Shown here: in pieces, positions 7,121-35,237 of the stretch
How positions within the stretch are numbered: the first letter of the stretch is position 1
How the letters are laid out: each line of letters begins with the position of its first letter
DNA from: a virus
Taxonomy: Duplodnaviria; Caudoviricetes
Length of the DNA stretch: 58,173 bases
IMG/VR virus record: IMGVR_UViG_3300025141_000105
Span: 1-58,173 of that record
Reading direction: 5' to 3' (one strand)
Made by a program: the position numbers and the translations under genes
Notes under the pieces: generated by a model
The model's database searches: none
What the model saw: only the letters and a program-made list of their open reading frames with translations
Told to the model about the DNA's origin: nothing

Positions 7121-7167
7121 TAGTAACTACTTTGTAGAACTTTCTTAGTTTGTTTTTAATTACATAG

Positions 7168-7192: not shown

Positions 7193-7209
7193 TGTATTAT
7201 AACAAAAGA

Positions 7210-9612: not shown

Positions 9613-9709
9613 AGATAGACAAAATAAAGATTCAATGCTATTTTTAATAGTAGGTTATATAGGATTAGTTGCTTTAATAATAGGTTTAGTAATAGGAAGA
9701 TTAATATAA
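9605..9709 (+). CDS. Small single-TM protein (not in ORF track)
   Basis: MNRDRQNKDSMLFLIVGYIGLVALIIGLVIGRLI*, 34 aa. Confidence 0.55.
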   Translation: MNRDRQNKDSMLFLIVGYIGLVALIIGLVIGRLI

Positions 9710-9721
9710 ATAATATTTAAT

Positions 9722-9922
9722 ATGGATGAAATTATAAGTTTAAGTATTATTGCATTTGTTTTAGTGGTTGGTTTTATAATAGGAGCTATATTTGCTGTAA
9801 TTGTAAATGCAAAAGAAAATAAATCCTTGACAAAAGAGATTGATAAGTTTAGAGATTTATATTTTGAAGAAATGGATAAATGGAAAAATAAATATGATGA
9901 TGATGATTATGAAGCATATTAA
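9722..9922 (+). CDS. Single-TM protein with acidic tail
   Basis: N-terminal TM helix, coiled-coil, DDDDYEAY end. Confidence 0.65.
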   Translation: MDEIISLSIIAFVLVVGFIIGAIFAVIVNAKENKSLTKEIDKFRDLYFEEMDKWKNKYDDDDYEAY

Positions 9923-10052
9923 AGAAAAATTAATATATTTACTACATAGAATAGGATTTCATAATTCTAATTGTAGAAGAAGAATATATACTACAGAACA
10001 AGATTGTTTATGTTTAATAACGGGGAATACCCATAAAAAATTTCAATTATGA
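9909..10052 (+). CDS. Small His/Cys-containing hypothetical protein
   Basis: Likely start MKHIKEK at 9909 rather than 9840; HRIGFH..NC...C.C; ATGA coupling to groES. Confidence 0.5.
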   Translation: MKHIKEKLIYLLHRIGFHNSNCRRRIYTTEQDCLCLITGNTHKKFQL

Positions 10053-10309
10053 TAAAAGCAGTAGGGCTAAGAGTAATAATACGTCCAGATAAACCAGAAG
10101 AAGTAACAGATTCAGGAATTATATTAACCGAAGTATTGCCAGACATACCTGATAGAGGAATTGTAGTTTCCACAGGGAATAAAGTTAAGGAGCTTAAAGA
10201 AGGTGACTACGTTATATTTGATCCGATGGGGATAAATCCTATCACACATGATAACGAAGAATATTTTTTATTCTATGAGGCCCAAATATTAGCTAAAATA
10301 AAAGAATAA
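10049..10309 (+). CDS. groES: Co-chaperonin GroES (Cpn10)
   Basis: RVIIRP...EEVTDSGIIL mobile loop, G.VVSTG, LKEGD.VIF, EAQILAKI. Confidence 0.88.
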   Translation: MIKAVGLRVIIRPDKPEEVTDSGIILTEVLPDIPDRGIVVSTGNKVKELKEGDYVIFDPMGINPITHDNEEYFLFYEAQILAKIKE

Positions 10310-18159: not shown

Positions 18160-18525
18160 CTAGTATCCTTTAGGAGCGAAATAACAAATGCAAGAACCGC
18201 TGTTAAGCTCTACATGGTCCCATTTCCCATAAATAGTGACACCTGCAGCAATTGAGTGACTACTTGTAACGTCAGTACCATTTGCAGATGCTCCAATACC
18301 ATTTGCTCCATCTAAATCATTTTCAGCTGTAACAGTACTTATTGATCCTATTTCTCCATTTAAATTTTCTAATTTTTCAAATGTAGTAGCAGCCCCCATT
18401 GTTATAGCGCAAACATAAGCTGTTGATGTTGCTCCAGTTAAATCTATAAGATCGCCATCTCCAGTTAAATAGGTAGAGCCAAGTGCTCCTAAACGAAATT
18501 CATTATGATTATTAAATTGTGCCAT
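18160..18525 (-). CDS. Putative virion protein (paralogue family B)
   Basis: G.TIYGKWDHVELNSGSC.CY.AP.GY shared with 18548-18922. Confidence 0.7.
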   Translation of the reverse strand: MAQFNNHNEFRLGALGSTYLTGDGDLIDLTGATSTAYVCAITMGAATTFEKLENLNGEIGSISTVTAENDLDGANGIGASANGTDVTSSHSIAAGVTIYGKWDHVELNSGSCICYFAPKGY

Positions 18526-18547: not shown

Positions 18548-18922
18548 TTAATATCCTACTGGTGCTAAATAACATAAACAAGAACCACTATTAAGCTCTA
18601 CATGATCCCATTTACCATATATTGTAATTCCTTTTGGGAAAGTATGACTTGAAGTTATTGCTAAAGCATCATCATCCCCTAAATTTGTTACTGCTCCAAA
18701 AGCATCATCTATTTGTGTTTCATTAGTATCATCAGTACTTATAGATCCTATAACACCATCTAGTGTTTGAATTTTTTCAAAAGTAACATCTTCCATCATT
18801 GTAATTGCCAATATAAATCTATTAGCAGTAGATCCATCTAAATCTAGTATAGCTCCATCACCATTCAAATATACAGAGCCATAACTACCAAAAGATGCTT
18901 TAAATAAGTCGTTTACATTCAT
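18548..18922 (-). CDS. Putative virion protein (paralogue family B)
   Basis: Tandem paralogue of 18160-18525. Confidence 0.7.
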   Translation of the reverse strand: MNVNDLFKASFGSYGSVYLNGDGAILDLDGSTANRFILAITMMEDVTFEKIQTLDGVIGSISTDDTNETQIDDAFGAVTNLGDDDALAITSSHTFPKGITIYGKWDHVELNSGSCLCYLAPVGY

Positions 18923-18950: not shown

Positions 18951-21900
18951 TTATCTTATTAATGAACTTGTTTCCTTTTCACCTTTTTCTCCTTTGTAAA
19001 AAATATTAGATATATCTTTTCTAACTTCAGCTAATGGGGCTACATCATGAAAAAGTGTTTTGATAGCCTGAGACTCGCCTTTCTCTCCATAAGCACTAGA
19101 TCTTTTGATTTTATCTCCTCTTATAGCTTCACCTATAGCTTTAGTAGAGTTTCTTAACGTACTATAAGAAGAGGGTTTTAATGTGTAATTTACAAATCTA
19201 TTCATATCTGTAGTAACAAATACATCATGAGAGAATTTCTTCATTGTTCTTAATGTGTTAGAATCAGTTTCATCATCATCTTCCATAAGGGCAATTAAAC
19301 TTAGTAAAGTAATACCTATACCTATTCCATTTAAATGATTAATAATTTCTTGTTTTCTTTGTGGGCTGGACTCATTAAATATATCCATAATATTTTTCTT
19401 TGTCATTTCGCCTGCAAAATACTTTCTAAATAAATTTACTACAAACTCACTAGAGGCTCTATAACTACCTATATTAACATTACCAAATCTATCTATATCT
19501 TCAGCTTTAAACCTATCTCTTAATGTGGTAATAAACCATTTTTTAAATTGCAGTAATGCTCTACCATAAGAATACATAGAAAGCATACTTGCATCTAAAG
19601 CTGTATATCCTTCTCCATGTAATGTAGATATCTTATGATTAATTTGCATTACCCTTTGATCGTCAATAGGATCAAGACCGTTATACTCTCTTTCTGTAAG
19701 TTCTCCTAAGAAAGCAGCTCCTTGTATATAACTCTCTGATCTATCCATAAAGTAATAAGACCATCTTTCTATTTTTCCATATAATCCTTTTCTTTCAGAT
19801 AAATGTATAAACTCATCAAAACTATACTCTACTATTCTGTGTTTTTTCAAAAGATCCCAAGACTTGTCTTTACCATCAATCCAATATCTTTTTTCTCCTA
19901 ATATAAATTGTTTACCACCACGCTTACGTAACTCTTGATATTTACCTGCTAGTATATTACCTACACCAATACCCATATTAAAACCAAGTAATCTTAATGA
20001 TGTTAGCCTAACAAAACTATCTATAATCTTGTCTCCTGTTTTACCAAAGACCCCTTCTTGCTGCTTCTTTTCTAAGAATCCTTCTTTCCACCATTTAGTT
20101 AAATAATCAACAGCTTTTTTATTATCTAAATTTTTATTAAACGATATAATAGAATCTGTAAGAACTGACATTTTATTCATACCACTAAAACCATCTGGAT
20201 TTTTCTGTAAATTCTCTCCATGCATAAATAGCGAGCTTCTTACAAACTCTAACATACCAGAATGTATATCATAACTAATAGTAGCAGCCTTAACACCTCT
20301 TCTTCTTTCATACTCTTGTATTAACTCTGCATCTATATTATTAATAGTATCACCATCGCCCATCATTCTTTTAAGTCTTGAGCCATTATTTATTAATGCA
20401 TCATATTCAGAGTCTGATAATAGTATATTAGAACCATCCATGTGTTTGCCTCTAGACTTCCAGTCTTTAGCTAACTTTCTTAATTTTTCTAATTCGTTTA
20501 TTTTCTTACCAGACTTTAAAGTAATATCTCCAGTTCTTCCTTTATATACATCATATTTCCACTCGTAAAAAGTTTTGTAAACTTTATCACCGTTTTGATC
20601 TGTACCCTTAACTTTAACTCTATTGTAATCACTAGAGTCTATTGTGGCGTTATATAAACCAAATAGTCCACTTCTAGACATTGATTCTATATTACCCATC
20701 TGCATACCTGGGACTATAACATCTTGTACGTTTAAAAGATCATTACCTATTTTTTTATATGCATTATAATAATTACGCTCTTCTTCAGTTAGTTCTTTTT
20801 GATTTATTTCTTCTTCACTTAATAATCTAATATTGCCATTTTCTAATGTAGCTATATTACCATAAATAAATTTATATCTTGCATCAACATCAAATCCTTT
20901 CCTCACTCTTTCTAAAATACTTAAACTTCTCATTTTTGATCTAATAAGTGATTTATTAGAACTCTCTATCATATTCTTGTATTTTGAAAAGGATCTTAAG
21001 TATTTTCTATATTCCTCTTGTACTTCGTTAATTAGATATTGTATCTCAGGTCTTTTAGATGTCATATCATTAGACCCTAACCATTTTTGGAAATTACTAA
21101 TATCTTCTTGTGCTACGCCATCAACTCCAGGAGTATTATATTCGTATCCTTGTCTAGCTCCTTTCTTTCTAAGTTTTTCAGATTGTATTCTAAACGCTCT
21201 TTGTCCTATTTCTTTCTCAATAGTATGAGCAATACCTTTAGTAGCTGAGTTGTCCATCTTTCTAAACTTAACTCCTAGCTCATACAAGTCATTTATTTCA
21301 TACTTAGACAAAGGCTTTCTTTCTAACTTAGCTTCAAACTCTTTAACTAATCTATACTGCTCTCTATATGTGTCGTATCTATTTCTTAGTATAGTAAATG
21401 TATCTGATTCTGGAGATATTTTAGACAAATCAATTCCTTTATCTCTAGCCCAAGTATCCATTTCTAACATTCTAACACCGCTACCTAAATAATCATTATT
21501 ATAAGATGTTTCAGAAGATATTATCTTTTTAGCTTTTCTTGTTGGGTCTACAAAAGAATTATCTAACTTAGAGGCTATGTCTACCTTATCTTCAGTAGAG
21601 TATTTCTGGTTTCCAGATATTATACCACCTAATCCAAGCATGCTTCTTGCGTCTGTATACTCTGTTGCAAGTGAACCTACTAAGTTTGCTTCTCTAGTTT
21701 GATTCTCTTCTATAATAGCAGACATAGACTTATTTATCTTTTCTATATATACATCGTCAAAGAAAGGTATAAAAGATCCAGCAGCACCAGCTCCTCCTGT
21801 AAGTCCAAATCCATTAAACTGCGCCTCTAATGCAAACACAAAATCTTTTTCAGTTTCAGTAAGTTGATTAAAGGATTCTTTTATTTGCTCTATAGCTTTA

Positions 21901-24900
21901 TAAGATGTAAACTCTGTAATCTCAGCTCTATTAATAACTACTTTGTTTCCTTTTTCATTAACCTCTATAATTCTATTTAAAAATTTATTCTCCTTATTAC
22001 GCCCTTGTAATAATTTAAACTCTTCTATTAGTGTAGGGTTGTCTTTTAGTGCATTAGGTTTTAAAAACTCAATTTTATTTTTTAAGTTGTTTATTATAAT
22101 TTGATTTATAATTTTTGGCTTAGTTAATTTATTTTTATTTAACTCTTCAAAAGTAGCATCATTAATAATATCTCTCATATACTGAGTATATCTTATATCA
22201 GTCCTTTGAGCTCTTTCTAATACACTATCAAATAATCCCATAGCGTGTTGCACAATACTATTACGTGAGCTAGCTCCTAATGTGTAAGATATGTTTAATC
22301 CACCAGCTTTAGCTTTTTCATTTATAATGACAGGACCAGCTTGTATTCTTGCTATATCATCTCTTATCTTTCTAAGTTCTAAAGGATTTTTTTCTATAGT
22401 TTGATGTACAGTAAACGCTTTAGAAAAAGGTCTTACTATATCTTGATTGTATTTGTTTAGGCCATATAACATTAGTATAGTGTCTATCTCTGCTTTAGCA
22501 TCTCCTTTAGATAATGCATTTAAATCTATTTCAATACCTTTTGTTATTCTGTCTGCTAACTTTTGCCAATTTTTTTCATTATAAAATCGCTTGTAAGCTT
22601 GTCCAGGCTTATTGCTTTTAGTTGTCAGTCCTTTTATACCTCTTTTTTCTAAGAACATAACTAACTCGTTAAAGTTTATAGTTTGATCTTCTAAAAACAT
22701 TTCTTTAATATCACTATCTTTTGATATATAGTTTTTACTTCTACTTCTTTTAAACTCCATATACTCTTTCACTATAGGAGAATTAAATAATACTGATAAA
22801 TCATTTAAGGAATACCCTAATCTTCTTAAAGTAACATAAGGAAATACACTTTGCATATCTATACCAAGCTTCCCAGCAAATTGATGTTTAGCGTTGTCTA
22901 ATGCTATATTAAGAAGCTGTGCTACACCAAACCAATTACCTACACCACCCTCTAATGTAGAATCATCAAAAAATTTGTCTTCTGTTTTATTATTAATCTT
23001 TATACTAAAAGGTAGTTTTTCTTCTGTGTTAGAAAATATATTAAACGTTCTTTGTAATGCTGCGATTATACCAACTAAGTTCTTTGCTGGTACATTGTCT
23101 TCAAACATTTGTGCATCACCCATAGGTGTAAGCTGTGATTCTTCTTGTTTAGCTTTAGAGCCATAAACACTTTCCGCTTTAGCAATAGCTGCCTTAGCAT
23201 CGTTTTCAAAGTTAATATCAGCTTTAATTTCAGCCTGTCTTTTAGGTTGGCTGATTAACTGTACATATTTATCAAAGAACTCATTAGAAAACTCTCTCCA
23301 TTCTTTACCTTTCTTTTTAACTTCTGCATTTGTCCATTTAAAATTCATGTGAACCGCATCTCCATCTAAATCGGCTCCCCAGTTTTTACTTACATGTGCG
23401 GGTATAGTTATATTAGATGTTGGTGAGTTTCCTATTTGCTCATGAAAATCTTTTACTACAAAAATAGAACTAGTTACCTTACCATGAGAAGGTACTCTTG
23501 TTCCAATAAACAAGTCTCCTTTTTTAACTCCTTGTTTTTGTAGGTATCCAGGAACAATAGCTTCTGAAGCAATTACATTTTCATCACCTTTAAATAAACC
23601 TTTTTTATAAGACTGTAATCCCATACCTAAACTTGCAGATTGATAAGCAATAGATCCTTTAGTGTACATCTTAGTGCCTTTGTGTGTTATACGTCCTGTT
23701 GCTATAGAGTTGTAAACTGCATTAACAAAAGGATATCTAGGGTCAACTTTAGGGAAAACAGAGTCTATTAATACACCAAAAATATCTGCGCTTACAGAAG
23801 ATTTAAATCCATCTCTCTCTTGTAACACCTGCTTTTCTGTAGCTGTATTATCTACAATAAGACCATTTTCTTCACCAGCTTTATTTCTAGAGTAATTATT
23901 TGCCTCCATTACTCTTTGTCTTAATATAAACATTTCCTCTATAATTTTCTGCTCTTCTTTAGTGTCTATATTTGTTGCTAGATTATAGAATAATTGAGAA
24001 GGGAAAAATCTTTCGCTTACTTGTTTATCTAATTCTAATTGTATGCCTAACCCTTCTCCTGATAATGCTTGATAGCCATTATCTCCTTTATATATCTCGT
24101 CTTGACTAGCCATTATTTGATCTATATTTTCAGATGTAGATATATCGTATACATATTTACTTCCTGTTTTACCAGAAGGTCCGTCAAAGAATAATTTAGC
24201 AGCAGATTCAGATGCAGCTATAACAAGATTACCTGGAGTCTTAGACATTTCTTGAACTTGTTCTTGTCTTTTTCTAAGCATATCCCCTATGTTTTTAAGA
24301 TAAGGACTTGTTGATTCTAGCTTAGGTGTTAATGTGTGTACAGCAAACTTTAAGTATGTTGTATTTCCTTTTAGCTTACCTTCTGTTTCTGTATAGTGAT
24401 ATACAAACTTAAATACATTACCTACCTTTTGTACCTCTCCATACTTAGCTCTAATGTATTTAGCTTGCTCAGGAAGAACATATCCCATTGCATCATTCTC
24501 AATAGCAGTACCTTCTTTTTCTTCAGTTCCTATATTATTATTTTCATCAACAAAATAATCTTTAATAATAATAGGTTCTATTTGTGTGTTTCTATCAAAT
24601 ACAATATGACTAGCTATTGACCCAGCAGCTCTTTTAATATAGTCTATTTGGTCTTTAGATTGTCTATGATCATGTACAAACAATTGTTGAGCCATAAACT
24701 TATTGGCAATATAAGATGTTAAAAAAGCATCTAAAGCAGCGTCTAAATTTTTAACCTCTTTTAAATCAGTATTACCTTTAAATAGCTCTGCATTTTTATT
24801 TGCATATTCTTTCCACCTTTCTATAATAGCAGGCATTTCTTTAATCTTGCCATTACTTATAGTGTATGGAAATATAGTGTATTTTAATTCAAGATTTTTT

Positions 24901-27900
24901 CTAAGATTTTTAGCTTTAGCTGGTGATATTTTTTCTTTTTTTATTTGTTCATTTAAAGACTTTAAAGCTTTTTCATAATTAAGATATTTAACCTTTTTCT
25001 TATATACAGGATTTTTTTCTATTTTAGAAAGCAATAACTTTTTCATTTTATCGTTATGAGCTATAATACTCTCTACATAGTACCTTCTACTTTTGTCAGA
25101 AAATACCGCAATAGCTTGATCATATATACCCATAGCTTCGTTACCAGCCATTAACTCATTGTATTTAGATAAGAAACTAAAGAAATCACCTGCTATTAAC
25201 TCACTAGGAGTTACGCTATTTAATTTTGATGCTCTACCCTCATATTTAACACCATCAGCTCTTGTAACTAATGTTCTCATCATTCCTGAGTGTATAGTAA
25301 AGTTAAAAGGATTATTTGTTACCTTACCTTCGCTATTAGCTAATACTCCAGCTTGCTTTTTTCTAAAAGCCATATCAGCATAAATATTATTATCAGGATG
25401 CATAACACTATCTGACTCTATAATAGTTTCATTGTTTATAATAGTTGCTACATTTTTAGCTCTATTATGTAAACCACTCTCTTTATTAAATATACTTATA
25501 CCATCTCCTTCTACATTATCTACCATAGATAAGTAGTTAATAGCCCTAGACGCTACAAGACCTTCTGTAAGTATTACTTTTAACTCACCTTGCTTGCCGT
25601 ATATTAGTCCTTTAGCCTGATACTTTCCTATTTCTACAGCAAACTTACCTTCTTTAGTAATACCCATTAAGGATTGATTGTTTAAATTAGGTTTGCCATT
25701 TTTAAATCTAGTATGACCAAAAAGTATCTGGCTTAATGTTTGCCTTTTATCTTTAAATAATATTCTTGCATTTAATAAAGCATCTTTGTCTATTAAAACT
25801 CCCTTGTTAGTATCGTCTAAAATTTCAGACAAAACTCTTTTGGCGGCAGTGTTTATATCATTCTCATCAAGAACTTCTTTGAATTTATTCTCTTTAGAAT
25901 CGTAAAATAAGTTGTCATATATTTTTGCTATTCTTTTCCCTTTAGCTGTATTTTCTTTGAGATTATTCATAACATCATTTATAACACCAGCCTCTAGAGT
26001 TTTACTCATGGTTTTATAAGTTCTCCATTTTCTAGCACCCATATATCCTATCTCTAACGCTTGTTGAGTTAAAACCTCTATATTAATACCTTCTATTGGA
26101 CCTTTAAGCTCCATTAACTTAGCATTAGTAAGAACTTTGTCTTTACCATAAACACCATCTAATACTCTTAGCATAGCCATAATCTCAGCACTATCAGACT
26201 TTCTTAATGTAGGGATAAAATCAAATGGATCATTCTGTGTACTTTTAGCTATAACATATAAATCATATAACAGCTTTTTTCTATTAATTATATTATCAGG
26301 ATTTTTAAAGTTATAAACTTCTGTAATCTTTTTTATAAAGTTAGATGTAGTTGTTGGTAGTGCAATTATCTTATTAGATTCTTTGTATTGATCTGACTCA
26401 GAAGCCTGATCCATATTTTCTTTTTCATTTAAATCTAATCCTATTTCAGAAAGTTGTTTGTCTAATACTTTATCAGCTAACTTTAAATCTGCAGGTCTAG
26501 TAATCTGAACTATAATAGCCTTTACGTATTCTCTTAACTGTTTAACATCTGTAACTTTTAAATTAGAGTCTTCTGCTATTCTTTTCATAACTCTATTAGT
26601 CATAACAGTAGGAGTTAAATTTCTACCTATAAAATCTCCTATATACATAGATACCGCTGAGTATGTAGCTCTAGATGCAAATGCTTTCTTATTAGCTCTT
26701 TTAATATCACCATAAGCAGAGTTTTGCACTACAGGTATAGTACGTTCTCCAGAATTAAAGTCTAGTAAGATGTGCTTAATAGAAGCCTCTAAGTCTAATG
26801 ACTGTATATTATCTACAGATAAATCTAAAAGTCTTTTAGCTTCTTCATCAGTGGCTAATTTCTTAGTCTTTTTATAAAACTCAATTAAATCTTTCTTTAA
26901 TAATTCTTGAGCTTCTGATCCTTTTACAATTGAATCAACCGTTCCTTTAGAATAAAGCTCTAACGTTCTAGTAAACGTCTCTTCAAGTAGATGTTTTTGT
27001 TGATCTACCCTAACATCTTTTATTCCTTGTAGTTTTAATTGTATTCTTAATTCATTAAAAAACTCTGTACTTTTTGCGCTATCACCTTGCCTTTCTGCTA
27101 ACGCTATATTTTCTGATATATTTGTAAGTATACCTTCTTCTCCTACAGGCTTATTAATTAATATATTTTTATAGATACTACCAAGAGTCATTTTATTACC
27201 GTTGTAATTCATAAGAATTAATTCAGGGTAATTTCTTTTTGTTCTTTGATATTCAGCAGACTTTGGTAAAAGCTTTTTAATTCTTTTCATTAATGGAGTG
27301 TCTTCCATTAAGCCGTAATACACATGTCCTAATTCGTGTATTAAATCAGTTTGTTCTACTTGATTCTCATTAATTAAAACAACAGAACCTATTGCTAAAG
27401 ATGTAGCTTCTTGCCCATAGTCGTCTGCTAGCTTAGATGATATTACATACCCACGTGCACCTGGGAATTGTTTTTGCACAATGCTTCTAGTTAATGCTGC
27501 TGCCCCTAATCCTGAGTGAGTATATACTTCAAGATTACGATTAATTAATATATCCTCTTGTGCAGGGATATTTTTAAAAGACTTATCAAGTAATTTTTTA
27601 AAACTTTCTTTTGTTTGCTTAACAGAACCTATTACCTTATCTATAGTGCGAGTATCTTTCTTTTTAGCTTTTTTAGTAGGGCCTTTTTGCCCTTCAAGAG
27701 TTTTTGATGTTTCTAATGGCGTTCCACTTTTTACATATTTTGCATATGAAGCGAACATTGATTTATAAGCAGTAGCATCCCCGCCAAACAATTTAGCTAT
27801 GTATTCATATAACTTATCTAAAATAGTAGAATCTTCTACTTTTATTTTATTTAAATAACCCATAAAAACAGGGTTCGTTAATGAATATGTAAGAAATTCA

Positions 27901-30900
27901 TGTATATTATCAACCGCTTTAAACCTAGATCTTGAGGATTTTGATTGAGATAAATATATACTATACAGCCCTTCTACTTCATTTATAAATTGAGTTTCTT
28001 CTTTTGATAAATACTTTAATGCTTGCGGAGCCTTTTTCTTTATTTCTAGCAAATTCATTGTTGTTGCATGTATAGTTTCATGCATTATAACTTCAGCAAA
28101 AACAGAATCATAAGACCTTTCTGTCTTTTCTGCAAACTTCTTTATGTTTTCTTTGCTAAATGATATAGTATATATAACACCTCCTTTATTGTCTTGTTTT
28201 TTATTAGTATTTCCTAACACTGTTTGGTCAGCTCCTTTTACATGCCCATCTTTAATAACAAGATCTAAAAATGCCTTTTTATTAAGGCCTAATAAAACCC
28301 TTGCTATATTTCTAAAATATGATTTATCTGACTCTTCAGCAATTCTTTTTAATAAATTACCTATAGTGTCAGACTCTACATCAATAAATTTACTATCTAC
28401 AATACCTTTATCTTTTTTATATTCTTGATATTCTAACTGACCAATAACCTTGTCTCCTACAATAACTTGAATTTTACTTTCGTATAATGGAGCGCCTTTT
28501 TGATGTTGAAAGTATAGCTTACCATTTACTTCAACTACATCAGCCTTACCAGCTACTGGCTCTACTAAATTTAACTTTATGTTTTGTGGTGTTTTTGTTA
28601 GAGCCTCTGCTCCAAAAGGTTTAGATGTAAAAAACTTAATAACTTTTCCTGTAGCTGTTTTTAACATATAGCTAGTAGTACTTGCTTTACCTTCTTTATC
28701 TACTACCTTAGATATACTTGCAGCTTCTAACTGTATCCCTTTCTTTTTAAGAGTTTCTTCTGTTTTACTGTACTCTTCTGTTTTAGGAACTACTTGAGGT
28801 TGGTCTTTTTTTTTTACGTCTTCGTCAGACTCTTGTTTCTTTTCTTCAGCAGCTTCTACTGTTTCTTTCTTAGCCTTTTTAAATTTCTCTATGGCTTCTT
28901 TTACGTCTTTATTGTTAATGATTTTATCTACACCACTACCAATAATTTTTAAAGCAGCCTTCACTCCTATTTTACCAGCCTCTAAAGCTTTAACTAATTT
29001 TTCTTTAGCAGAAGGAGTTATTTCTTCTTTAGTATATTTTTTAACGTCTTCTATAGCTTTTTTAGTTTCTTCTGATGTAACTTTATCTTTAGCTTTACCA
29101 AATAAACTTTTAGCTCCTTCTACAGCTTTACCTCCTAATTCTTTAGCTCCTTCTACAACTTTAGAAATAAGAGAGGGTTCTGCATCTGCTTTCTTTTTAG
29201 CTTCCGCTTCCGCTTTTTTAGACTCTTCTTGAGAGTATATTTTCATTTCATCTTTAGTAAGACCTTGAACTTTATATCTAGCATCTCTTTTACCTGTAGA
29301 TTCCGCTATAGGAGCCTTGTCTACTCTTAAAGTGTATATGTCTTCTATCTCCCTATTTAAAACAGCCATATCTTGGTCTAATGTTTCCATTATAGATAAA
29401 TGATTTTGCTCTAAAATTTCTAGCGCTTTCTTTTGTTTTTTATCATTTTTTATATTTTCAACAATATGTGCTTTATCTGTTTCGTATGCAGCTTTTTGTA
29501 TTGCTTGTTGAGATAAATTTCTAGACTTTCTTGTTTCTCTAAAGAAGGCTTGTTTTGCACCAGCTTCTGTTAACATACTATTAGCAGAATGTTTTAGATA
29601 ATTTTTTTCTGATGCCTCTATAGCTACTATAAATTCGTCAGCTACCTCTCTAGACATTTTTTTATCCTTAACCATATTTTCAGCATACTCATACAAAAAA
29701 GATCCATCACCCTTGTAGTTCCATATGTTTATAGCCATAGTATTATCAGTAACCATAGCTTCGGCTGCATAATACTGTTCAGGTGTTTTAGCCGCATCTA
29801 ATATTTTAGCATTAGTATTAATAGCTTCTTGATGCTCATCAAGAGCAGCGTGTCTTGCAGCAGCTGAATCAAAATAACCTCTAGCGCCACCCATAGCCCC
29901 TCCTAAACCTACAGAAGACCAAAATAAATCTCTAATTTCTGGTCTATAGTTTCCGTAATCATCTTTTACCCAATCAGTCATAGATAAATGATCTTCACCC
30001 TTAGCCTCTTGTATGTTTTTATATTTTATCCATTCTTGATATGTTTCTTGAATCCCTTCTGTTATCCCCTCAACACTTGCATAAGCTCCTGCTGCAGGTA
30101 AATTAGGCAATACTTTTCTTACAGCATAAGAGGTAAGTCCTTTTATGCTAGCTTTAAATGGATTTGATTTTAGAGGGTTTAGTAATAATCTTTTAGCCAT
30201 ATTTTTACCTATACCACCAAATAGTAATCCATATTGAACCATATCAACTGCCATCCATTTAGCATTATCATACATTACACCAGCTGCATGATTAGCCGCC
30301 TCTTCTGGAGTAAATAATTTATTTCCATTAGCATCTACCTCGTGTAACATTTCTGAATATGCTTCTCCAGAAAGATAAGCTCCTTCTGCCATATTCGCAG
30401 CAGCACCCCCTCCAATAAAACCACCAACATTACGCATAAGTTTAGTTTGTCCATATCCTAATCTCCCAGCGTCAGTGGCTAATTTCCCTAACAAACCAGT
30501 TCCTTTTACTGCATTAGCCCCCATTCCTATACCTCCACCCATAGCTCCAACATTAACACCTATCTTACCTGCTTTATTAGCTTTAGAAATACCTTTAGCA
30601 GACCACACTCCAAATCTACCTAATAATGAAGCCCCTGCTTTAGCACCTCCTCCGTAAGGTATAACAAATGACATAGCGTAAGGAACTAATCTAGATATTT
30701 TAGAAGACCAAAATTCTCCTTTAAACATATCTTGAAAAGTAATATCTTTTAAATCTTCAGAAAGAATTAATGCATTTTCATTTTGATATTCTGTACCTAT
30801 CTTTTGAAACCATTCGCCAACAGAAGTAGATGGCTCTACATCTCCTGGTCTAGCCCAAGCATTAATAAAATCTACTGTCTCACCAGTACCGTATAATAAA

Positions 30901-31253
30901 TCACCCCAACCTGCTTTTAATCCTCTTTCTACTCTCTCTCCAGTAGAGCCTATCATTGATGTAGGGTCTACTATTTGTTGATCAGGAGCAGAACCATACT
31001 TTAATTCATCTAACTTACCATACTCATCAGCAGCTAACTGTGAAGCAGCTTGACCTTGAGCCATTCTATCAAAAGTTATATTTTGTTGCCCTGAGCTATC
31101 TAGCCCTTGTATCATTGAGCTTAATGTAGATGGTCCCTCCATAGGAGCATCATATTGTTGATTGATTGCTTCTTCTGGACTAGGTACTCTTACATCGTTT
31201 TTTGCTAAATCACCTAACAACATATTTAATCCTGATCTATAGTCTTCTGCCAT
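18951..31253 (-). CDS. Giant virion-packaged DNA-dependent RNA polymerase polyprotein (crAss-like, double-psi beta-barrel) with zincin domains
   Basis: 4100 aa; catalytic WGADLDGD (23358-23372) preceded by GTRVPSHG; ENDAMGY and LKFA motifs; HETIH (28068-28082) and HELGH (27324-27338); located after tail/cargo genes as in crAss-like phages. Confidence 0.85.
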   Translation of the reverse strand: MAEDYRSGLNMLLGDLAKNDVRVPSPEEAINQQYDAPMEGPSTLSSMIQGLDSSGQQNITFDRMAQGQAASQLAADEYGKLDELKYGSAPDQQIVDPTSMIGSTGERVERGLKAGWGDLLYGTGETVDFINAWARPGDVEPSTSVGEWFQKIGTEYQNENALILSEDLKDITFQDMFKGEFWSSKISRLVPYAMSFVIPYGGGAKAGASLLGRFGVWSAKGISKANKAGKIGVNVGAMGGGIGMGANAVKGTGLLGKLATDAGRLGYGQTKLMRNVGGFIGGGAAANMAEGAYLSGEAYSEMLHEVDANGNKLFTPEEAANHAAGVMYDNAKWMAVDMVQYGLLFGGIGKNMAKRLLLNPLKSNPFKASIKGLTSYAVRKVLPNLPAAGAYASVEGITEGIQETYQEWIKYKNIQEAKGEDHLSMTDWVKDDYGNYRPEIRDLFWSSVGLGGAMGGARGYFDSAAARHAALDEHQEAINTNAKILDAAKTPEQYYAAEAMVTDNTMAINIWNYKGDGSFLYEYAENMVKDKKMSREVADEFIVAIEASEKNYLKHSANSMLTEAGAKQAFFRETRKSRNLSQQAIQKAAYETDKAHIVENIKNDKKQKKALEILEQNHLSIMETLDQDMAVLNREIEDIYTLRVDKAPIAESTGKRDARYKVQGLTKDEMKIYSQEESKKAEAEAKKKADAEPSLISKVVEGAKELGGKAVEGAKSLFGKAKDKVTSEETKKAIEDVKKYTKEEITPSAKEKLVKALEAGKIGVKAALKIIGSGVDKIINNKDVKEAIEKFKKAKKETVEAAEEKKQESDEDVKKKDQPQVVPKTEEYSKTEETLKKKGIQLEAASISKVVDKEGKASTTSYMLKTATGKVIKFFTSKPFGAEALTKTPQNIKLNLVEPVAGKADVVEVNGKLYFQHQKGAPLYESKIQVIVGDKVIGQLEYQEYKKDKGIVDSKFIDVESDTIGNLLKRIAEESDKSYFRNIARVLLGLNKKAFLDLVIKDGHVKGADQTVLGNTNKKQDNKGGVIYTISFSKENIKKFAEKTERSYDSVFAEVIMHETIHATTMNLLEIKKKAPQALKYLSKEETQFINEVEGLYSIYLSQSKSSRSRFKAVDNIHEFLTYSLTNPVFMGYLNKIKVEDSTILDKLYEYIAKLFGGDATAYKSMFASYAKYVKSGTPLETSKTLEGQKGPTKKAKKKDTRTIDKVIGSVKQTKESFKKLLDKSFKNIPAQEDILINRNLEVYTHSGLGAAALTRSIVQKQFPGARGYVISSKLADDYGQEATSLAIGSVVLINENQVEQTDLIHELGHVYYGLMEDTPLMKRIKKLLPKSAEYQRTKRNYPELILMNYNGNKMTLGSIYKNILINKPVGEEGILTNISENIALAERQGDSAKSTEFFNELRIQLKLQGIKDVRVDQQKHLLEETFTRTLELYSKGTVDSIVKGSEAQELLKKDLIEFYKKTKKLATDEEAKRLLDLSVDNIQSLDLEASIKHILLDFNSGERTIPVVQNSAYGDIKRANKKAFASRATYSAVSMYIGDFIGRNLTPTVMTNRVMKRIAEDSNLKVTDVKQLREYVKAIIVQITRPADLKLADKVLDKQLSEIGLDLNEKENMDQASESDQYKESNKIIALPTTTSNFIKKITEVYNFKNPDNIINRKKLLYDLYVIAKSTQNDPFDFIPTLRKSDSAEIMAMLRVLDGVYGKDKVLTNAKLMELKGPIEGINIEVLTQQALEIGYMGARKWRTYKTMSKTLEAGVINDVMNNLKENTAKGKRIAKIYDNLFYDSKENKFKEVLDENDINTAAKRVLSEILDDTNKGVLIDKDALLNARILFKDKRQTLSQILFGHTRFKNGKPNLNNQSLMGITKEGKFAVEIGKYQAKGLIYGKQGELKVILTEGLVASRAINYLSMVDNVEGDGISIFNKESGLHNRAKNVATIINNETIIESDSVMHPDNNIYADMAFRKKQAGVLANSEGKVTNNPFNFTIHSGMMRTLVTRADGVKYEGRASKLNSVTPSELIAGDFFSFLSKYNELMAGNEAMGIYDQAIAVFSDKSRRYYVESIIAHNDKMKKLLLSKIEKNPVYKKKVKYLNYEKALKSLNEQIKKEKISPAKAKNLRKNLELKYTIFPYTISNGKIKEMPAIIERWKEYANKNAELFKGNTDLKEVKNLDAALDAFLTSYIANKFMAQQLFVHDHRQSKDQIDYIKRAAGSIASHIVFDRNTQIEPIIIKDYFVDENNNIGTEEKEGTAIENDAMGYVLPEQAKYIRAKYGEVQKVGNVFKFVYHYTETEGKLKGNTTYLKFAVHTLTPKLESTSPYLKNIGDMLRKRQEQVQEMSKTPGNLVIAASESAAKLFFDGPSGKTGSKYVYDISTSENIDQIMASQDEIYKGDNGYQALSGEGLGIQLELDKQVSERFFPSQLFYNLATNIDTKEEQKIIEEMFILRQRVMEANNYSRNKAGEENGLIVDNTATEKQVLQERDGFKSSVSADIFGVLIDSVFPKVDPRYPFVNAVYNSIATGRITHKGTKMYTKGSIAYQSASLGMGLQSYKKGLFKGDENVIASEAIVPGYLQKQGVKKGDLFIGTRVPSHGKVTSSIFVVKDFHEQIGNSPTSNITIPAHVSKNWGADLDGDAVHMNFKWTNAEVKKKGKEWREFSNEFFDKYVQLISQPKRQAEIKADINFENDAKAAIAKAESVYGSKAKQEESQLTPMGDAQMFEDNVPAKNLVGIIAALQRTFNIFSNTEEKLPFSIKINNKTEDKFFDDSTLEGGVGNWFGVAQLLNIALDNAKHQFAGKLGIDMQSVFPYVTLRRLGYSLNDLSVLFNSPIVKEYMEFKRSRSKNYISKDSDIKEMFLEDQTINFNELVMFLEKRGIKGLTTKSNKPGQAYKRFYNEKNWQKLADRITKGIEIDLNALSKGDAKAEIDTILMLYGLNKYNQDIVRPFSKAFTVHQTIEKNPLELRKIRDDIARIQAGPVIINEKAKAGGLNISYTLGASSRNSIVQHAMGLFDSVLERAQRTDIRYTQYMRDIINDATFEELNKNKLTKPKIINQIIINNLKNKIEFLKPNALKDNPTLIEEFKLLQGRNKENKFLNRIIEVNEKGNKVVINRAEITEFTSYKAIEQIKESFNQLTETEKDFVFALEAQFNGFGLTGGAGAAGSFIPFFDDVYIEKINKSMSAIIEENQTREANLVGSLATEYTDARSMLGLGGIISGNQKYSTEDKVDIASKLDNSFVDPTRKAKKIISSETSYNNDYLGSGVRMLEMDTWARDKGIDLSKISPESDTFTILRNRYDTYREQYRLVKEFEAKLERKPLSKYEINDLYELGVKFRKMDNSATKGIAHTIEKEIGQRAFRIQSEKLRKKGARQGYEYNTPGVDGVAQEDISNFQKWLGSNDMTSKRPEIQYLINEVQEEYRKYLRSFSKYKNMIESSNKSLIRSKMRSLSILERVRKGFDVDARYKFIYGNIATLENGNIRLLSEEEINQKELTEEERNYYNAYKKIGNDLLNVQDVIVPGMQMGNIESMSRSGLFGLYNATIDSSDYNRVKVKGTDQNGDKVYKTFYEWKYDVYKGRTGDITLKSGKKINELEKLRKLAKDWKSRGKHMDGSNILLSDSEYDALINNGSRLKRMMGDGDTINNIDAELIQEYERRRGVKAATISYDIHSGMLEFVRSSLFMHGENLQKNPDGFSGMNKMSVLTDSIISFNKNLDNKKAVDYLTKWWKEGFLEKKQQEGVFGKTGDKIIDSFVRLTSLRLLGFNMGIGVGNILAGKYQELRKRGGKQFILGEKRYWIDGKDKSWDLLKKHRIVEYSFDEFIHLSERKGLYGKIERWSYYFMDRSESYIQGAAFLGELTEREYNGLDPIDDQRVMQINHKISTLHGEGYTALDASMLSMYSYGRALLQFKKWFITTLRDRFKAEDIDRFGNVNIGSYRASSEFVVNLFRKYFAGEMTKKNIMDIFNESSPQRKQEIINHLNGIGIGITLLSLIALMEDDDETDSNTLRTMKKFSHDVFVTTDMNRFVNYTLKPSSYSTLRNSTKAIGEAIRGDKIKRSSAYGEKGESQAIKTLFHDVAPLAEVRKDISNIFYKGEKGEKETSSLIR

Positions 31254-31254
31254 A

Positions 31255-33273
31255 CTAATTTTGGTATTGTGATATTTGTTTGCTTAATTTTCTGCTTTGC
31301 TTGTATCTATTTTCAGGCATTATACCTTGACTATATACATCATAGTTACCCTCTTGTATTGCTTTTAACATATCTAGTACTCCTGGGCTTCCATTAATTA
31401 ATCCTTTCTTAAGAACTTGTGTAGATAAAGCCATATATTCAGAAGAGTTTCTTGCTACTTTATCTCCAATTTGTACTGGATACTCTCTTTCTTGACGCGA
31501 ATCTACGTATAAATCTGACATTAACAAAGGAATAGCTTTCTGAATTTTTGCTGAAGGAACATTAGCCATACCTAATCCTATTGATAAAGATTGGTCATAA
31601 GCGCCTATAAATTCATCTACAGCAGGAGCGGAAGGTAAATTCATTTGTTTTTGTAATATAGCATTGCTAGACGCTCTTCTTTTATTGTTATATGTTTTTT
31701 GAGCTAAACTTTGCTCGTATGTTGCCATTTGAGTTTTAACCCTATTTAAATCTGTAGAATCTATCTTTTCATTTAAAGCTGCTTGAATTGTAGGGTCTCC
31801 CATGTCTACTTTCTTATAATAAGCATCATCATGACTTACCATGTCATCGTCTATAAGCTCTGCAACAACAACATAATCAAAAACAGTATCTTTGTATTGT
31901 TCTCTTAATTTATTCATATCTGCCTCATTAGAAACGTCTGTAAGTAAGAATGCATCACCATCTTTATTCTTACCTTCTAAAGCAATATGATATCCAGTTA
32001 ATCTTAAGTCATCTGTTTCTGATTCTTGCCATGAGCCCGCACCTGTTAACCAAGTAGATGCTATATCGCTGTCTGTAATCTTATGTCCTCTTGAATCATA
32101 CAAACCTTGCATGGCTATATCGTTTACTTGACGTGATTTAGAGTTATACCTAGATGATTTAGCTTCATCTCCATAATCGCCAGCCCAAGATTGTGTTATA
32201 GCATTTTCAAGCATTTGATTATTAGCAAATACTCTACCACTACCAACCATTTGTCTTCCTTTAGCAAAAGGTGCTCTTATGCCTTTGTAGTTTTTCATTT
32301 CGTTATTCTTGTCATAGCCTCCTAATCTATCCCAATCCATAGCAGCTGTTCCGTCAAATAATTCTTTAAATGATATGCCTTGATCTCTGTTTCTAAAATA
32401 ATCACTACCCTTAGCGATACCAGTGCTTCCTACAGCATCTAATGACCTAACCATTTCTGTAGCAAACTCTGTATCAATTTCTTTAACACCATATATACCT
32501 TTATCATTAAAGAATCCAGAACCCTCATCATAGCGTAATTCTTTACCTACCCACGTTCTAATGTCCTCTTGACTTAATGATTGCATAAATGCTTGTGGAT
32601 CATCAGGATTTTGATCATTAATCATGTCCTTTATAATGGCCTGATAATTACTTCCTATAACCTCATCTAAGTCTAATTGGTCTGACATGCTTAATGCTTG
32701 ACTAGCTTGATCTAAATAATCTGATCTTAATCCGTGGAATACAAAGTTATCAGTTTCATTTTTTATAAACTGCTCGTATCTTTCACTTTGGCCTGACGTA
32801 ATAAATTGTTGATTTTTTGGATCTAAAGCTGCTATATGATATTTTTCTAAAGAAGCTTTATTTTGTTTAATTCTATTAGATATTGGATTGTCTTTTAAAT
32901 TAGCTTTATACTCTTCCATTAAATAATCTAAATTACCATTTAGCCTAGCGTTGTCTATAGAGCCATGTTCTCTTAATACATCTTGTATGTTTTTCCATCC
33001 AGATAAGTCTGTGTGCCAATTCGTAAAATCATCTACATCTTTTTGTCTTGCAAATCCATTATCAGTGTATATATCTTTTAATGCTTGGTTTGTAGCTGCT
33101 GATAATTGTTGTTGATATGCTTGGTCTCTATTTAGCTCTTGTAATTGTTGATTTTTAATTTGTTGCTGTTGTTGCATTTGCTGCATTGCCCTAGCATCAC
33201 GATTTGCTTGGATATCTCCAGCTGCCTTCATTGGGCCTGTTAAAGCATCAAAAAATCCATAATCTATTCCCAT
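31255..33273 (-). CDS. Putative internal virion cargo/ejection protein
   Basis: 672 aa with Q-rich helical N-terminus; immediately upstream of the vRNAP. Confidence 0.6.
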   Translation of the reverse strand: MGIDYGFFDALTGPMKAAGDIQANRDARAMQQMQQQQQIKNQQLQELNRDQAYQQQLSAATNQALKDIYTDNGFARQKDVDDFTNWHTDLSGWKNIQDVLREHGSIDNARLNGNLDYLMEEYKANLKDNPISNRIKQNKASLEKYHIAALDPKNQQFITSGQSERYEQFIKNETDNFVFHGLRSDYLDQASQALSMSDQLDLDEVIGSNYQAIIKDMINDQNPDDPQAFMQSLSQEDIRTWVGKELRYDEGSGFFNDKGIYGVKEIDTEFATEMVRSLDAVGSTGIAKGSDYFRNRDQGISFKELFDGTAAMDWDRLGGYDKNNEMKNYKGIRAPFAKGRQMVGSGRVFANNQMLENAITQSWAGDYGDEAKSSRYNSKSRQVNDIAMQGLYDSRGHKITDSDIASTWLTGAGSWQESETDDLRLTGYHIALEGKNKDGDAFLLTDVSNEADMNKLREQYKDTVFDYVVVAELIDDDMVSHDDAYYKKVDMGDPTIQAALNEKIDSTDLNRVKTQMATYEQSLAQKTYNNKRRASSNAILQKQMNLPSAPAVDEFIGAYDQSLSIGLGMANVPSAKIQKAIPLLMSDLYVDSRQEREYPVQIGDKVARNSSEYMALSTQVLKKGLINGSPGVLDMLKAIQEGNYDVYSQGIMPENRYKQSRKLSKQISQYQN

Positions 33274-33275
33274 AA

Positions 33276-35237
33276 TTATTTGTTATCTGTTCCTGTGTTC
33301 CCCTGGTTACTCATTAATCCTTCTATTGTATTGTAAAGATTGCTTGTATTGTTTCTGTTTAAAAGAGAGCTGCCGCTTCCTCCAAATCCAGACATAAGGT
33401 TTGTAAATGCAGCTGATGTAAATGTAGCTGCTGCTTTCTTATTAGCTACCTGTCTTTCCATGTCTTCAGCTCTTTCTTTTTCTGTTTGTTGTATATCAAA
33501 ATTCTCTTTAAACATCATAAGCTTTTCATACTTCTCTTGATTCTTTGATTGTAGTTCAGAATCTTTAGCAGCATAATCTAATAATGCAGACGATCTTTGA
33601 GCGTCTAATATACCAGAAGACGCTAAGAACCTTGCTCTTTGACCTCCAGAACCTCTAACTGCATTCTCTAATCCTTTTTGATAAGCACCATCCATTTCTT
33701 TTTGAATCACCCTAGCTTGATCAGGATGAAATCCTTTCTTAGCAATCTCTCTACTTTGTCTAAGATGCTGCATAAACATAGGTGATAGTTGTGCGCTTGC
33801 ATGAGGCTTTACTTCTTTCATAGCCTCTTTCAATCCTTTCTTACCCATCACGTAAGATATAATACCTCCTGGACCTCCAACGTAATCTAACACTTTACCA
33901 GCACCTTCAAATAATGCTTTACCAGCATTACCTAGTTGATTCATTCTATAGTTAGAATCAATTGTAGAGTCTTCTGTTTCTGTTATAGCATCTTCTTCTT
34001 CTGCTGATGGTTCTACAACATCTTCTGTAGTAGTTTCAACTACTGGAGTTTCTATTATCTGTGTTTGATCAGTATTTTCATCAACAACATTATAAACAAT
34101 ATCCTCTTCCTTATCATCACTTAAAGAGCTTGGTAGTATAGGTGTTGTTTTACTTTCTTCTATATCTATAGTGCCATCAGGTAGCAAAATGTTTTGATTA
34201 TACCCTTGTTGTACTGGGCTAATATCATAATCCCTCCAGTCTTGTTTAGTTAATAATTTTACTCTATTACCACTTTCCTCTTTTTCTTTTCTTGCTTTTG
34301 CTATTTGATTTATTAAATCTTGTGGTGGTTCTTCTTTAGCGTCAATATATCCTTTTAGTTCTTTTTCTAATCTGGATTGTTCTTCTCTTGCATTGTTTTC
34401 TGAATTAACATAATTGTTTAATTCTTTTTTATACAAATCTTCTTTAAGTATGTTTTCTTTCTTTGTAAGATCTTTTATTAATTCATTTTTTCTTTTTGCA
34501 AGGTCATTATATTCTTTTGTTCCCTTACTAAAAGACTTTAAGTTTTTTTCTATAATACTTAATTCTTTAAAAGCATCTTGATTATCTTCTAAGTATTTTA
34601 AGTATTCGTCTCTACCAGATATTCTATCTAAAACATCTTTTCTGTATTTCTTTTTACTTGTCTCTTTAGATTCTCCCTCTACCTTAATCTCTGGCAATAG
34701 ACCAGGCATCTCTTCTTCTTCTTTTTCTCTATAAGGACTTTTACCTTCTTCTGCTAATTCTTGCTCTTCTTTGGTTGGAGCTTTTTCAGTAACAATTATT
34801 TCGTCATTATCCTCGTTAAAGCTAATTATATTTAAATTATCAATTCTTTTTTGTATTGCCTTTGAAGATTGATCCTTAGGATTTTCAAAGTTTTTCATAA
34901 AATCCTCTGTAGCTGCCGCTTTATCTTTATAGCTTTTATTAAGGTAAGCCTGTCCTTCTGGTTCTGATAAAGCAAAATCTATTTGTCCCTTCCAATTTGT
35001 TTTCCAATCAGGCACCGCTTCTAAAAACGCTTTTTTTCTTGTTTTGTATGTATGTTGAAAAAGACCTATGCCTTTATTTTTTACATCTCCCATTTCAACT
35101 GCATCAGAATAAAAAAGTGATTCAGTTTGTATATTGGCAATAATTCCCAAGGCTTTGTTCTTGGTCATATTAGGTTTAGTCATTAAATAATTATAAACCT
35201 CTTTTATTGATACTTTATTTTTTCCTGGTAATGCCAT
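33276..35237 (-). CDS. Virion cargo protein with N-terminal phage tail lysozyme domain
   Basis: YNYL...ALGIIANIQTES.F...GIGLFQHT...R...Q.DF...FENP; start set at MALPGK (TAATG overlap at 35237). Confidence 0.78.
   Translation of the reverse strand: MALPGKNKVSIKEVYNYLMTKPNMTKNKALGIIANIQTESLFYSDAVEMGDVKNKGIGLFQHTYKTRKKAFLEAVPDWKTNWKGQIDFALSEPEGQAYLNKSYKDKAAATEDFMKNFENPKDQSSKAIQKRIDNLNIISFNEDNDEIIVTEKAPTKEEQELAEEGKSPYREKEEEEMPGLLPEIKVEGESKETSKKKYRKDVLDRISGRDEYLKYLEDNQDAFKELSIIEKNLKSFSKGTKEYNDLAKRKNELIKDLTKKENILKEDLYKKELNNYVNSENNAREEQSRLEKELKGYIDAKEEPPQDLINQIAKARKEKEESGNRVKLLTKQDWRDYDISPVQQGYNQNILLPDGTIDIEESKTTPILPSSLSDDKEEDIVYNVVDENTDQTQIIETPVVETTTEDVVEPSAEEEDAITETEDSTIDSNYRMNQLGNAGKALFEGAGKVLDYVGGPGGIISYVMGKKGLKEAMKEVKPHASAQLSPMFMQHLRQSREIAKKGFHPDQARVIQKEMDGAYQKGLENAVRGSGGQRARFLASSGILDAQRSSALLDYAAKDSELQSKNQEKYEKLMMFKENFDIQQTEKERAEDMERQVANKKAAATFTSAAFTNLMSGFGGSGSSLLNRNNTSNLYNTIEGLMSNQGNTGTDNK

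Follow-up and report, generated by a model that had tools for sequence, protein, structure and literature searches.

We analysed a 58,173-nucleotide stretch of viral DNA (hereafter, the window), which is a linear IMG/VR virus record (IMGVR_UViG_3300025141_000105) with an estimated completeness of 85%. One unbroken open reading frame (ORF) of 4100 codons occupies positions 18951-31253 of its minus strand. The product of this ORF is most probably a giant virion cargo protein, the middle part of which (residues ~1905-3170) represents a single-chain, Mg-dependent RNA polymerase (RNAP) of the two-barrel type, homologous to gp66 of phi14:2, a crAss-like phage, and injected into the host cell. On sequence evidence, the protein belongs to a large, undescribed, deeply diverged and widespread sister family of the gp66-type enzymes, which keeps the canonical DxDGD form of the catalytic loop. 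An initial annotation of the sequence had pointed to a single-chain virion RNAP with a DLDGD loop in this ORF, without stating its strand. The ORF is uninterrupted, DLDGD lies exactly at positions 23358-23372 (residues 2628-2632) as annotated, and the accompanying GTRVPSHG, DAMGY and LKFA motifs are all present where they had been placed.

Homology of the central region to phi14:2 gp66

Comparison of a 43-member profile of the family with a 40-member profile of the gp66 family using hhalign gave a probability of 99.6% and an E-value of 2.1e-24 over 869 columns, and the family hidden Markov model (HMM) matched gp66 with a domain E-value of 1.7e-8 in a 7-sequence database. In the profile alignment NDAMGY, VFKFVY, YLKFA, GTRVPSHG, GADLDGDAVH and LLNIALDNAK of the present protein are paired with TDAQAW, PLKGVYF, YLKYS, GYRIPNQG, GSDFDIDKMY and FLNAFVDNAK of gp66, respectively, the last pair being located inside the gp66 trigger loop. 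The gp66 residues of these motif pairs are invariant in a 31-row alignment of the gp66 family. Residues that are invariant in one family fall on invariant residues of the other in the pairs K2282/K1012, K2302/K1027, K2353/K1065, R2586/R1322 and D2786/D1612, and the same is true of the catalytic aspartates, where D2628, D2630 and D2632 are paired with D1361, D1363 and D1365 of gp66. The two enzymes thus have invariant residues of the barrels, bridge helix and trigger loop in common. The bridge helix and trigger loop of gp66 are assigned to residues 1529-1559 and 1598-1636 in the accessible text of the gp66 preprint. Coordinates of all these elements are presented in Table 1.

There are also differences. 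The overall identity to gp66 is 13%, a Gly is present here for the Ile/Val at position 4 of the loop, and the insertion that follows the loop in gp66 (roughly residues 1369-1465) is absent here. Outside the core, profile comparison of residues 1190-2180 with gp66 residues 1-870, which hold the domain (residues 196-233) that blocks its cleft and self-inhibits the enzyme, gave nothing significant, and neither did the comparison of residues 3100-3760 with gp66 residues 1900-2180. In the poorly conserved stretch just before the polymerase core, the present protein has a 31-residue insertion (residues 2096-2126; positions 24876-24968, minus strand) relative to its five closest homologues.

Table 1. 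Location of the giant ORF, its domains and motifs, and its upstream neighbours in the window
Feature	Residues	Positions	Strand	Basis or remark
Whole ORF, cysteine-free fusion protein	1-4100	18951..31253	-	
Gly-rich N-terminal region, similar to phi14:2 gp67 residues 143-402	162-461	29871..30770	-	hhalign 94.9%, E 4.6e-8
Lys/Glu-rich, poorly conserved, linker-like region	600-948	28410..29456	-	K+E 26-34%, low conservation and occupancy
In-frame insert of 723 nt (241 codons), HETIH at 28068-28082		27675..28397	-	In this genome alone among aligned members
HELGH, family-conserved HExxH	1306-1310	27324..27338	-	HExxH in 42/43 aligned members
Two-barrel RNA polymerase core	1905-3022	22188..25541	-	Structural alignment to gp66 residues 527-1821
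Region profile-aligned to gp66 residues 858-1972	2172-3170	21744..24740	-	hhalign
Beta-like barrel motifs DAMGY (D2254), VFKFVY (K2282), YLKFA (K2302)		24342..24494	-	Alignment to gp66
DAMGY	2254-2258	24480-24494	-	
LKFA	2301-2304	24342-24353	-	
Beta-prime-like barrel GTRVPSHG...WGADLDGDAV, predicted metal-binding D2628/D2630/D2632, with G2631		23352..23504	-	
GTRVPSHG	2584-2591	23481-23504	-	
Segment aligned to gp66 bridge-helix region	2722-2741	23031..23090	-	hhalign
Segment aligned to gp66 trigger loop, LLNIALDNAK, D2786	2774-2802	22848..22934	-	BLASTP and hhalign, gp66 residues ~1600-1630
C-terminal part, similar to gp65 residues 975-1330	3743-4015	19209..20027	-	hhalign 94.2%, E 1.1e-7
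Three upstream cysteine-free ORFs (672, 661, 683 residues)		31255..37288	-	Probable further ejected cargo proteins

Conservation of the catalytic motifs in the family

A homologue search with residues 2150-2950 returned 56 proteins ranging from 2255 to 7175 residues, while the exhaustive search returned at least 73 representative clusters at 50% identity; four close loci were found in a single-protein scan. Nearly all full-length members are 3700-4350 residues long and are encoded on contigs of up to ~65-73 kb, as compared to ~100 kb for phi14:2. They are annotated solely as 'hypothetical protein', and some are derived from Tara Oceans data. Searches of GenBank phages with residues 1900-3000 (tblastn) and with 25 kb of the window (megablast) gave no match, in a collection from which records very close to the window may be absent.

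In an alignment of 43 sequences, with homologues that share 18-77% identity with the query, the invariant residues are D2628, D2630, D2632, R2586, P2588, K2282, K2302, K2353 and D2786, while G2631 and the Asp of DAMGY (D2254) are conserved in at least 90%. Since the three aspartates and the Lys/Arg residues of the barrels remain invariant down to 18% identity, the motifs are not a product of chance. DLDGD is the sole D.D.D pentapeptide in the 4100-residue protein. The catalytic loop is present in 102 of 125 homologues, with Gly at position 4 in 99 and Ala, Ile and Val in one each; Ile and Val occur in the two most distant matches (P0119 and P0120, E about 1e-5), which carry the crAss-type motif. 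Position 2 of the loop is variable (L 63, Y 10, N 9, F 9, H 6, K 3, Q 2). The 23 homologues lacking the loop consist of 21 fragments shorter than 1000 residues, P0116 and P0124. Among the 78 members of at least 3000 residues, position 4 is Gly in 77 and Ala in one.

Predicted structure of the polymerase core

An AlphaFold2 model of residues 1880-3079 was generated from a 33-row alignment. Its mean predicted local distance difference test score (pLDDT) is 84 and its predicted template modelling score (pTM) is 0.86, with pLDDT values of 89-92 in the loop region. The part of the model at residues 651-759 folds into six strands and two helices, where DLDGD is located between a helix (740-746) and a strand (754-759), before the last strand. 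Six strands and two helices are also the composition of a double-psi barrel according to the accessible text of the P23-45 paper, and a double-psi beta-barrel is present around DLDGD in our model.

The comparison with solved structures that the initial annotation had proposed identified gp66 as the nearest one, with RDR2 and QDE-1 next (Z 11-13). Foldseek search against the PDB placed gp66 (6VR4) first with an E-value of 3.8e-22, followed by QDE-1 (1.8e-6), RDR2 (6.9e-5) and P23-45 gp96 (1.3e-3). VIA-align superposed the core on gp66 with Z 20.5 and a 4.0-Å root mean square deviation (rmsd) over 920 residues, the aligned span being model residues 26-1143 (residues 1905-3022 of the protein) and gp66 residues 527-1821. 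The overall fold of gp66, in which one chain provides two double-psi beta-barrels and a connector, is thus present in the model. The next matches were ZmRDR2 (Z 12.8), P74 gp62 (12.6), QDE-1 (11.8) and Rpb1-type barrels (~10.2). Proteins of crAss-like phages head the named matches in the BFVD library of viral predicted structures (best E 1.1e-22), and no other type of RNAP is named among the best 50 matches listed.

A virion polymerase of the N4 type, which has the T7-like fold, was considered for its size and gene layout and was ruled out, all structural matches being two-barrel enzymes; N4 mini-vRNAP chains are absent from the structural matches listed for the core model.

A lineage that keeps the loop glycine

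According to the accessible text of the gp66 preprint, position 4 of the loop is Ile or Val in all crAss-like RNAPs and Gly in all other two-barrel polymerases, and the Ile/Val forces an inactive loop shape which needs remodelling. Among the gp66-type proteins examined here (the best 120 of 638 found, a sample biased towards phi14:2), we observed Ile in 117, Val in 3 and Gly in none. A count of the motif in 80 IMG/VR gp66 loci (78 with DFDID) was not used as evidence; it is biased, DFDIDKMY being a search pattern.

In a maximum likelihood tree of 83 core sequences (798 columns, LG+G4, quick search), a single branch with an SH-aLRT support of 100 and a summed length of ~2.5 substitutions per site parts 43 DxDGD sequences from 40 DxD[IV]D sequences; the two groups were sampled by two separate searches and intermediates may be missing between them. 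The family is therefore not nested among the ordinary crAss-type RNAPs, and the divergent, Gly-retaining lineage suspected in the initial annotation is borne out both by this branch and by the absence of Gly from the gp66-type proteins. No direction of change can be taken from the tree because it is unrooted. Our observations suggest that the substitution of Gly by Ile/Val is derived in the crAss-like enzymes. A limited literature search found no paper on a crAss-like polymerase with DxDGD, although the supplements and image tables of the gp66 paper may list such sequences. Virion two-barrel polymerases with Gly are already known outside the crAss-like phages, for example P23-45 gp96.

Relation to RNAi polymerases and to cellular barrels

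The initial annotation had linked DLDGD to the polymerases of RNA interference (RNAi), in particular to the plant RDR1/2/6 enzymes, and had suggested that this lineage may sit closer to their origin than gp66. QDE-1 and RDR2 (PDB 2J7N, 7Y7x, 7W82/7W84, 7RQS) are indeed single-chain two-barrel enzymes with DxDGD, and they match the present model at Z 11-13 over 450-570 residues, with 10-13% identity. As a control, the equivalent 1200 residues of gp66 (620-1819) were folded (pLDDT 84.8), and superposition of the resulting model on the gp66 crystal structure gave Z 38.5. The control gave VIA-align Z-scores of 14.4 to ZmRDR2 (10.7 to another entry), 13.4-13.8 to QDE-1 and 11.6-12.7 to AtRDR2, as compared to 12.8 and 11.4, 11.1-11.8 and 10.1-10.6, respectively, for the present protein. 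In this like-for-like comparison gp66 therefore scores as high or higher against RDR2 and QDE-1 (13.4-14.4). Foldseek points somewhat the other way, its E-values being better for the present protein than for the control (QDE-1, 1.8e-6 versus 1.8e-5; RDR2, 6.9e-5 versus 8.2e-3), and so does the identity in the structural alignments (10-13% versus 9-11%).

A gain over gp66 is seen elsewhere. Chains of the cellular beta-prime/Rpb1 type are matched at Z ~10.2 (19-22% identity over ~110 residues) as compared to ~6.0 for the control, and P74 gp62 at 12.6 as compared to 9.0. Like the cellular beta-prime/Rpb1 subunits, the present protein has an RxPxxH-like...DxDGD barrel, which superposes with an rmsd of 2.3-2.4 Å over ~110 residues; in contrast to the cellular multisubunit enzymes, it has both barrels in one chain and no other subunits. 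In the models, then, its catalytic barrel is more canonical than that of gp66 and nearer to the cellular beta-prime barrels. Further, the Leu at position 2 of the loop is not conserved, so that what the family keeps is just DxDGD, the general cellular form, and Gly is what two-barrel RNAPs generally have at this loop position, P23-45 gp96 (DFDGD) among them. The whole protein has no match to the Pfam RNA-dependent RNA polymerase (RdRP) family at E up to 1, and it is found in a phage cargo context. A special link to the plant RDRs is thus not upheld, and it is unlikely that the lineage is closer than gp66 to the RNAi polymerases and their origin. On the predicted structures, the present protein and gp66 appear about equidistant from the RdRPs, and the origin of RNAi polymerases is brought no closer by the one than by the other.

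Flanking parts of the chain

In phi14:2 the polymerase gene is flanked by the genes for gp67 and gp65, three separate proteins where one fused chain is found here. The N-terminal region of the chain, in which Gly makes up 19% of residues 201-400, resembles gp67, and its C-terminal part resembles the C-terminus of gp65 (Table 1). The order in the chain (gp67-like, polymerase, gp65-C-like) is hence the gene order of phi14:2. This is consistent with a remark, in the accessible text of the gp66 preprint, that some phages fuse the three proteins. The gp65-like part (residues 3743-4015) is the most conserved region of the family and contains the sole strongly hydrophobic segment of the protein (residues 3970-3993; positions 19275-19346).

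The family-conserved HExxH is located upstream of the polymerase, and by profile no counterpart of gp66 residues 1-870 was detectable in residues 1190-2180. None of the five closest relatives (70-91% identical) and none of the other 37 aligned members has the 723-nt insert, which carries a further HExxH. Its junction is clean and contiguous in the DNA of one relative (L001), and relatives with 87-91% identity in the flanking DNA are without it. Residues 1054-1187 within the insert align to gp65 residues 241-370 (BLASTP, 27% identity over 140 residues, E 8e-14; phmmer, domain E 2.3e-11 in a 7-sequence database). The alignment pairs HETIH with HEIMH, and a downstream HEF is common to both. By sequence, the insert is a second, gp65-like and zincin-like module acquired by this genome; the possibility that it duplicates the neighbouring HExxH module was rejected on comparison of the two. 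There is no Pfam peptidase match for the HExxH-bearing protein, the GC content of the insert is not unusual, and no relatives of the insert were found among proteins of 458-2000 residues, which is weak evidence. The description 'single-chain' of the initial annotation is accordingly correct, but the single chain is the rule in the family and what is peculiar to this genome is the insert of 241 of the 4100 residues.

In the gp66 family, additional Pfam domains are seen in P0181, P0196, P0201, P0224, P0229, P0231, P0233 and P0237; several of these polymerases, with lengths of 2760-3400 residues, carry helicase domains (PF13604, PF05970, PF13245 and others), and others carry PF25176 or PF08719. 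Extra enzymatic modules are thus often fused to crAss-type virion polymerases.

Cysteine pattern

Not a single Cys is present in the 6116 residues of the 4100-residue protein and the three ORFs upstream of it, where 47 would be expected from the Cys content of the other ORFs of the window (0.77%). Cys is likewise absent from 42 of the 43 family members. The 2289-residue gene that comes next upstream (37297-44166) has 17 Cys, and this step is probably where ejected cargo gives way to fixed tail structure. Of the three upstream ORFs, the 683-residue one (35237-37288, minus strand) matches tape-measure PHROGs over residues 333-574 (E 9.6e-8) and possibly encodes a protein that serves in ejection or as a channel and has tape-measure-like segments, despite the crAss-like (podophage-type) head genes.

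In phi14:2, Cys residues are found only at the facing ends of the three proteins, one in gp67 (its last residue), two in gp66 (residues 3 and 2179 of 2180) and one in gp65 (residue 3). The pattern extends to the gp66 family, where a Cys lies within the first six residues in 114 of 120 proteins and within the last six in 113. In the 80 IMG/VR loci, for which ORF calling was crude, a Cys closes the upstream ORF in 37 of 46 cases and opens the downstream ORF in 46 of 57. This placement suggests a disulfide-linked chain of ejected proteins, and a fused family without Cys is what would be expected if peptide bonds replace the disulfide links. Disulfides among tail and capsid proteins are reported in the accessible text of the PhiCrAss001 atlas; neither the end-cysteine pattern nor a Cys-free fusion is mentioned there or in that of the gp66 preprint, and the end-cysteine pattern did not turn up in a limited literature search. 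It is possible, although we put it forward tentatively, that the injected transcription module of the crAss type is one linear chain in all these phages, joined by peptide bonds here and by disulfides in the classical members.

Proposed function of the protein

The mechanism that we propose is drawn from homology and gene context. The protein would be made late together with the structural proteins and be packed in the capsid. On infection it would be pushed partly unfolded through the tail and refold in the cell, where the injected enzyme would transcribe the early genes of the phage from DNA. DLDGD in the beta-prime-like barrel would bind the catalytic metal, K2282, K2302 and K2353 being contributed by the beta-like barrel, and the segments resembling the bridge helix and trigger loop would follow the barrels. 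Since the Gly that is canonical in DxDGD is retained in this lineage, the loop can probably adopt the standard shape for metal binding and avoid the strained turn that has been proposed for gp66. The flanks would correspond to the phi14:2 partners of the polymerase, joined to it by peptide bonds, gp67-like at the N-terminal end and like the gp65 C-terminus at the other, and cleavage of the chain or of the cell wall may be the task of the one or two HExxH modules. In agreement with this proposal, GenBank notes on phi14:2 gp67, gp66 and gp65 cite virion mass spectrometry; the PhiCrAss001 paper proposes that such cargo is extruded partly unfolded; and gp66 is described as DNA-dependent and as requiring Mg and all three aspartates.

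The same enzyme could instead be a non-virion RNAP acting inside the cell on middle or late genes, as P23-45 gp64 does. P74 gp62, a non-virion enzyme of the gp64 type, is among the better structural matches (Z 12.6), and packaging of the present protein is itself deduced by analogy. However, the core lies inside a 4100-residue chain whose gp67-like and gp65-like flanks have phi14:2 counterparts recorded in virions, its gene sits in the structural block, and the lack of Cys in nearly all members fits an extruded protein, whereas the non-virion two-barrel enzymes in the PDB have ~590 residues. A non-virion role is, in our estimation, very unlikely. That the polymerase fold is a relic, in a protein serving just as an ejection or channel-forming protein or as carrier of an HExxH peptidase, would suit the large flanks without polymerase function and the C-terminal 400 residues being the best-conserved part of the family, but it is scarcely credible in view of the catalytic Asp, barrel Lys/Arg and trigger-loop Asp, none of which varies among 43 sequences with identities as low as 18%, and of DxDGD kept in 77 of 78 long members.

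Several observations weigh against an injected, gp66-like polymerase as the reading of this protein. Pfam and PHROGs searches of the whole 4100-residue protein and of five pieces of it gave nothing above noise. Searches of PDB sequences by phmmer with the protein and with the core HMM gave no polymerase match and did not reach gp66, and BLASTP aligned the correct segments of gp66 at an E-value of just 0.14; because direct sequence searches fail, the homology rests on profile-profile comparison and predicted structure. For gp65 and gp67, which were compared as single sequences, the matches have a modest probability of 94-95%. Nor does the fusion strictly follow the phi14:2 genes, where the HExxH of gp65 lies downstream of the polymerase. 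One full-length member, P0085, has DHDAD at residue 2480, with Ala for Gly at position 4. PHROGs named no other RNAP in the 40 other ORFs scanned, but the window represents ~85% of the genome and a second polymerase could be encoded elsewhere. Finally, the protein and its family are known from sequences and models of uncultured phages.

Genome setting

The plus-strand genes at 364-10309 are those of replication and recombination (DnaB-like helicase, Erf-like annealing protein, RusA-like resolvase and exonucleases), and from 10516 to the right end all genes are on the minus strand. As transcribed, these begin with the terminase large subunit, portal and major head protein and continue with smaller structural genes, the 2289-residue virion protein and the ORFs of 683, 661 and 672 residues, after which comes the 4100-residue ORF. 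The giant gene is hence co-oriented with and downstream of the terminase, portal, capsid and tail genes. This is reminiscent of the arrangement in phi14:2, in which tail genes come after those for terminase, portal and capsid and precede gp67, gp66 and gp65, with the RNAP at the end of the structural block.

The terminase large subunit matches phrog_6681 (E 2.8e-92) and the portal phrog_6547 (E 1.3e-118). The best GenBank relatives of the terminase are crAss-like phages, with 28-30% identity and E-values down to 7e-58 (205 records), followed by non-crAss Flavobacterium and Cellulophaga podophages with 22-23% identity. The major capsid protein has 61 matching records from crAss-like phages, with 24-30% identity across 42-70% of its length. 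Terminase, portal and major capsid protein of the crAss type are therefore all encoded in the window, and by sequence the uncultured phage is distantly crAss-like in these genes. No tRNA genes were found in the window, and a search for repeated promoter-like DNA gave no convincing family.

Two ORFs directly downstream of the giant gene (18160-18525 and 18548-18922, minus strand; 121 and 124 residues) are paralogues with 84 nt at 79% identity, and neither has a PHROGs match. An 81-nt repeat (79% identity, 402 nt apart) is present at 12777-12857 and 13179-13259 on the minus strand inside a 383-residue ORF (12676-13827), where it resembles a repeated domain, in what is probably a fibre or tail protein.

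Comparison with other phage polymerases and implications

Thermus phages also have two-barrel enzymes with the canonical Gly, namely P23-45 gp96, which is fused to the tape measure, and the non-virion P23-45 gp64 and P74 gp62. Their structural match to the present protein is much weaker than that of gp66. According to the P23-45 paper, gp96 likewise belongs to a giant virion protein, in which a metallopeptidase domain is present as well. However, its polymerase is located at the N-terminal end of the tape measure of a long-tailed phage, whereas here it is located in the middle of the chain and in the company of crAss-like head genes. Coliphage N4 gp50 (Schitoviridae) offers a parallel in architecture, being an ejected protein of ~3500 residues in which N- and C-terminal parts enclose a central polymerase domain (PMC13434306), but its polymerase is T7-like (single-subunit, right-hand fold) and not of the two-barrel type. 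With respect to phi14:2 itself, the ends of the three separate proteins carry Cys and the fused chain has none.

The family described here is the natural comparison for the loop hypothesis of gp66, as it presents Gly within a shared fold. Were the fused form with Gly the ancestral one, Crassvirales would later have split the chain and exchanged Gly for Ile/Val, which would have given rise to the self-inhibited loop of gp66. The existence of a fused, Cys-free form beside a split module with terminal Cys offers a testable idea of how very large proteins may be ordered for ejection.

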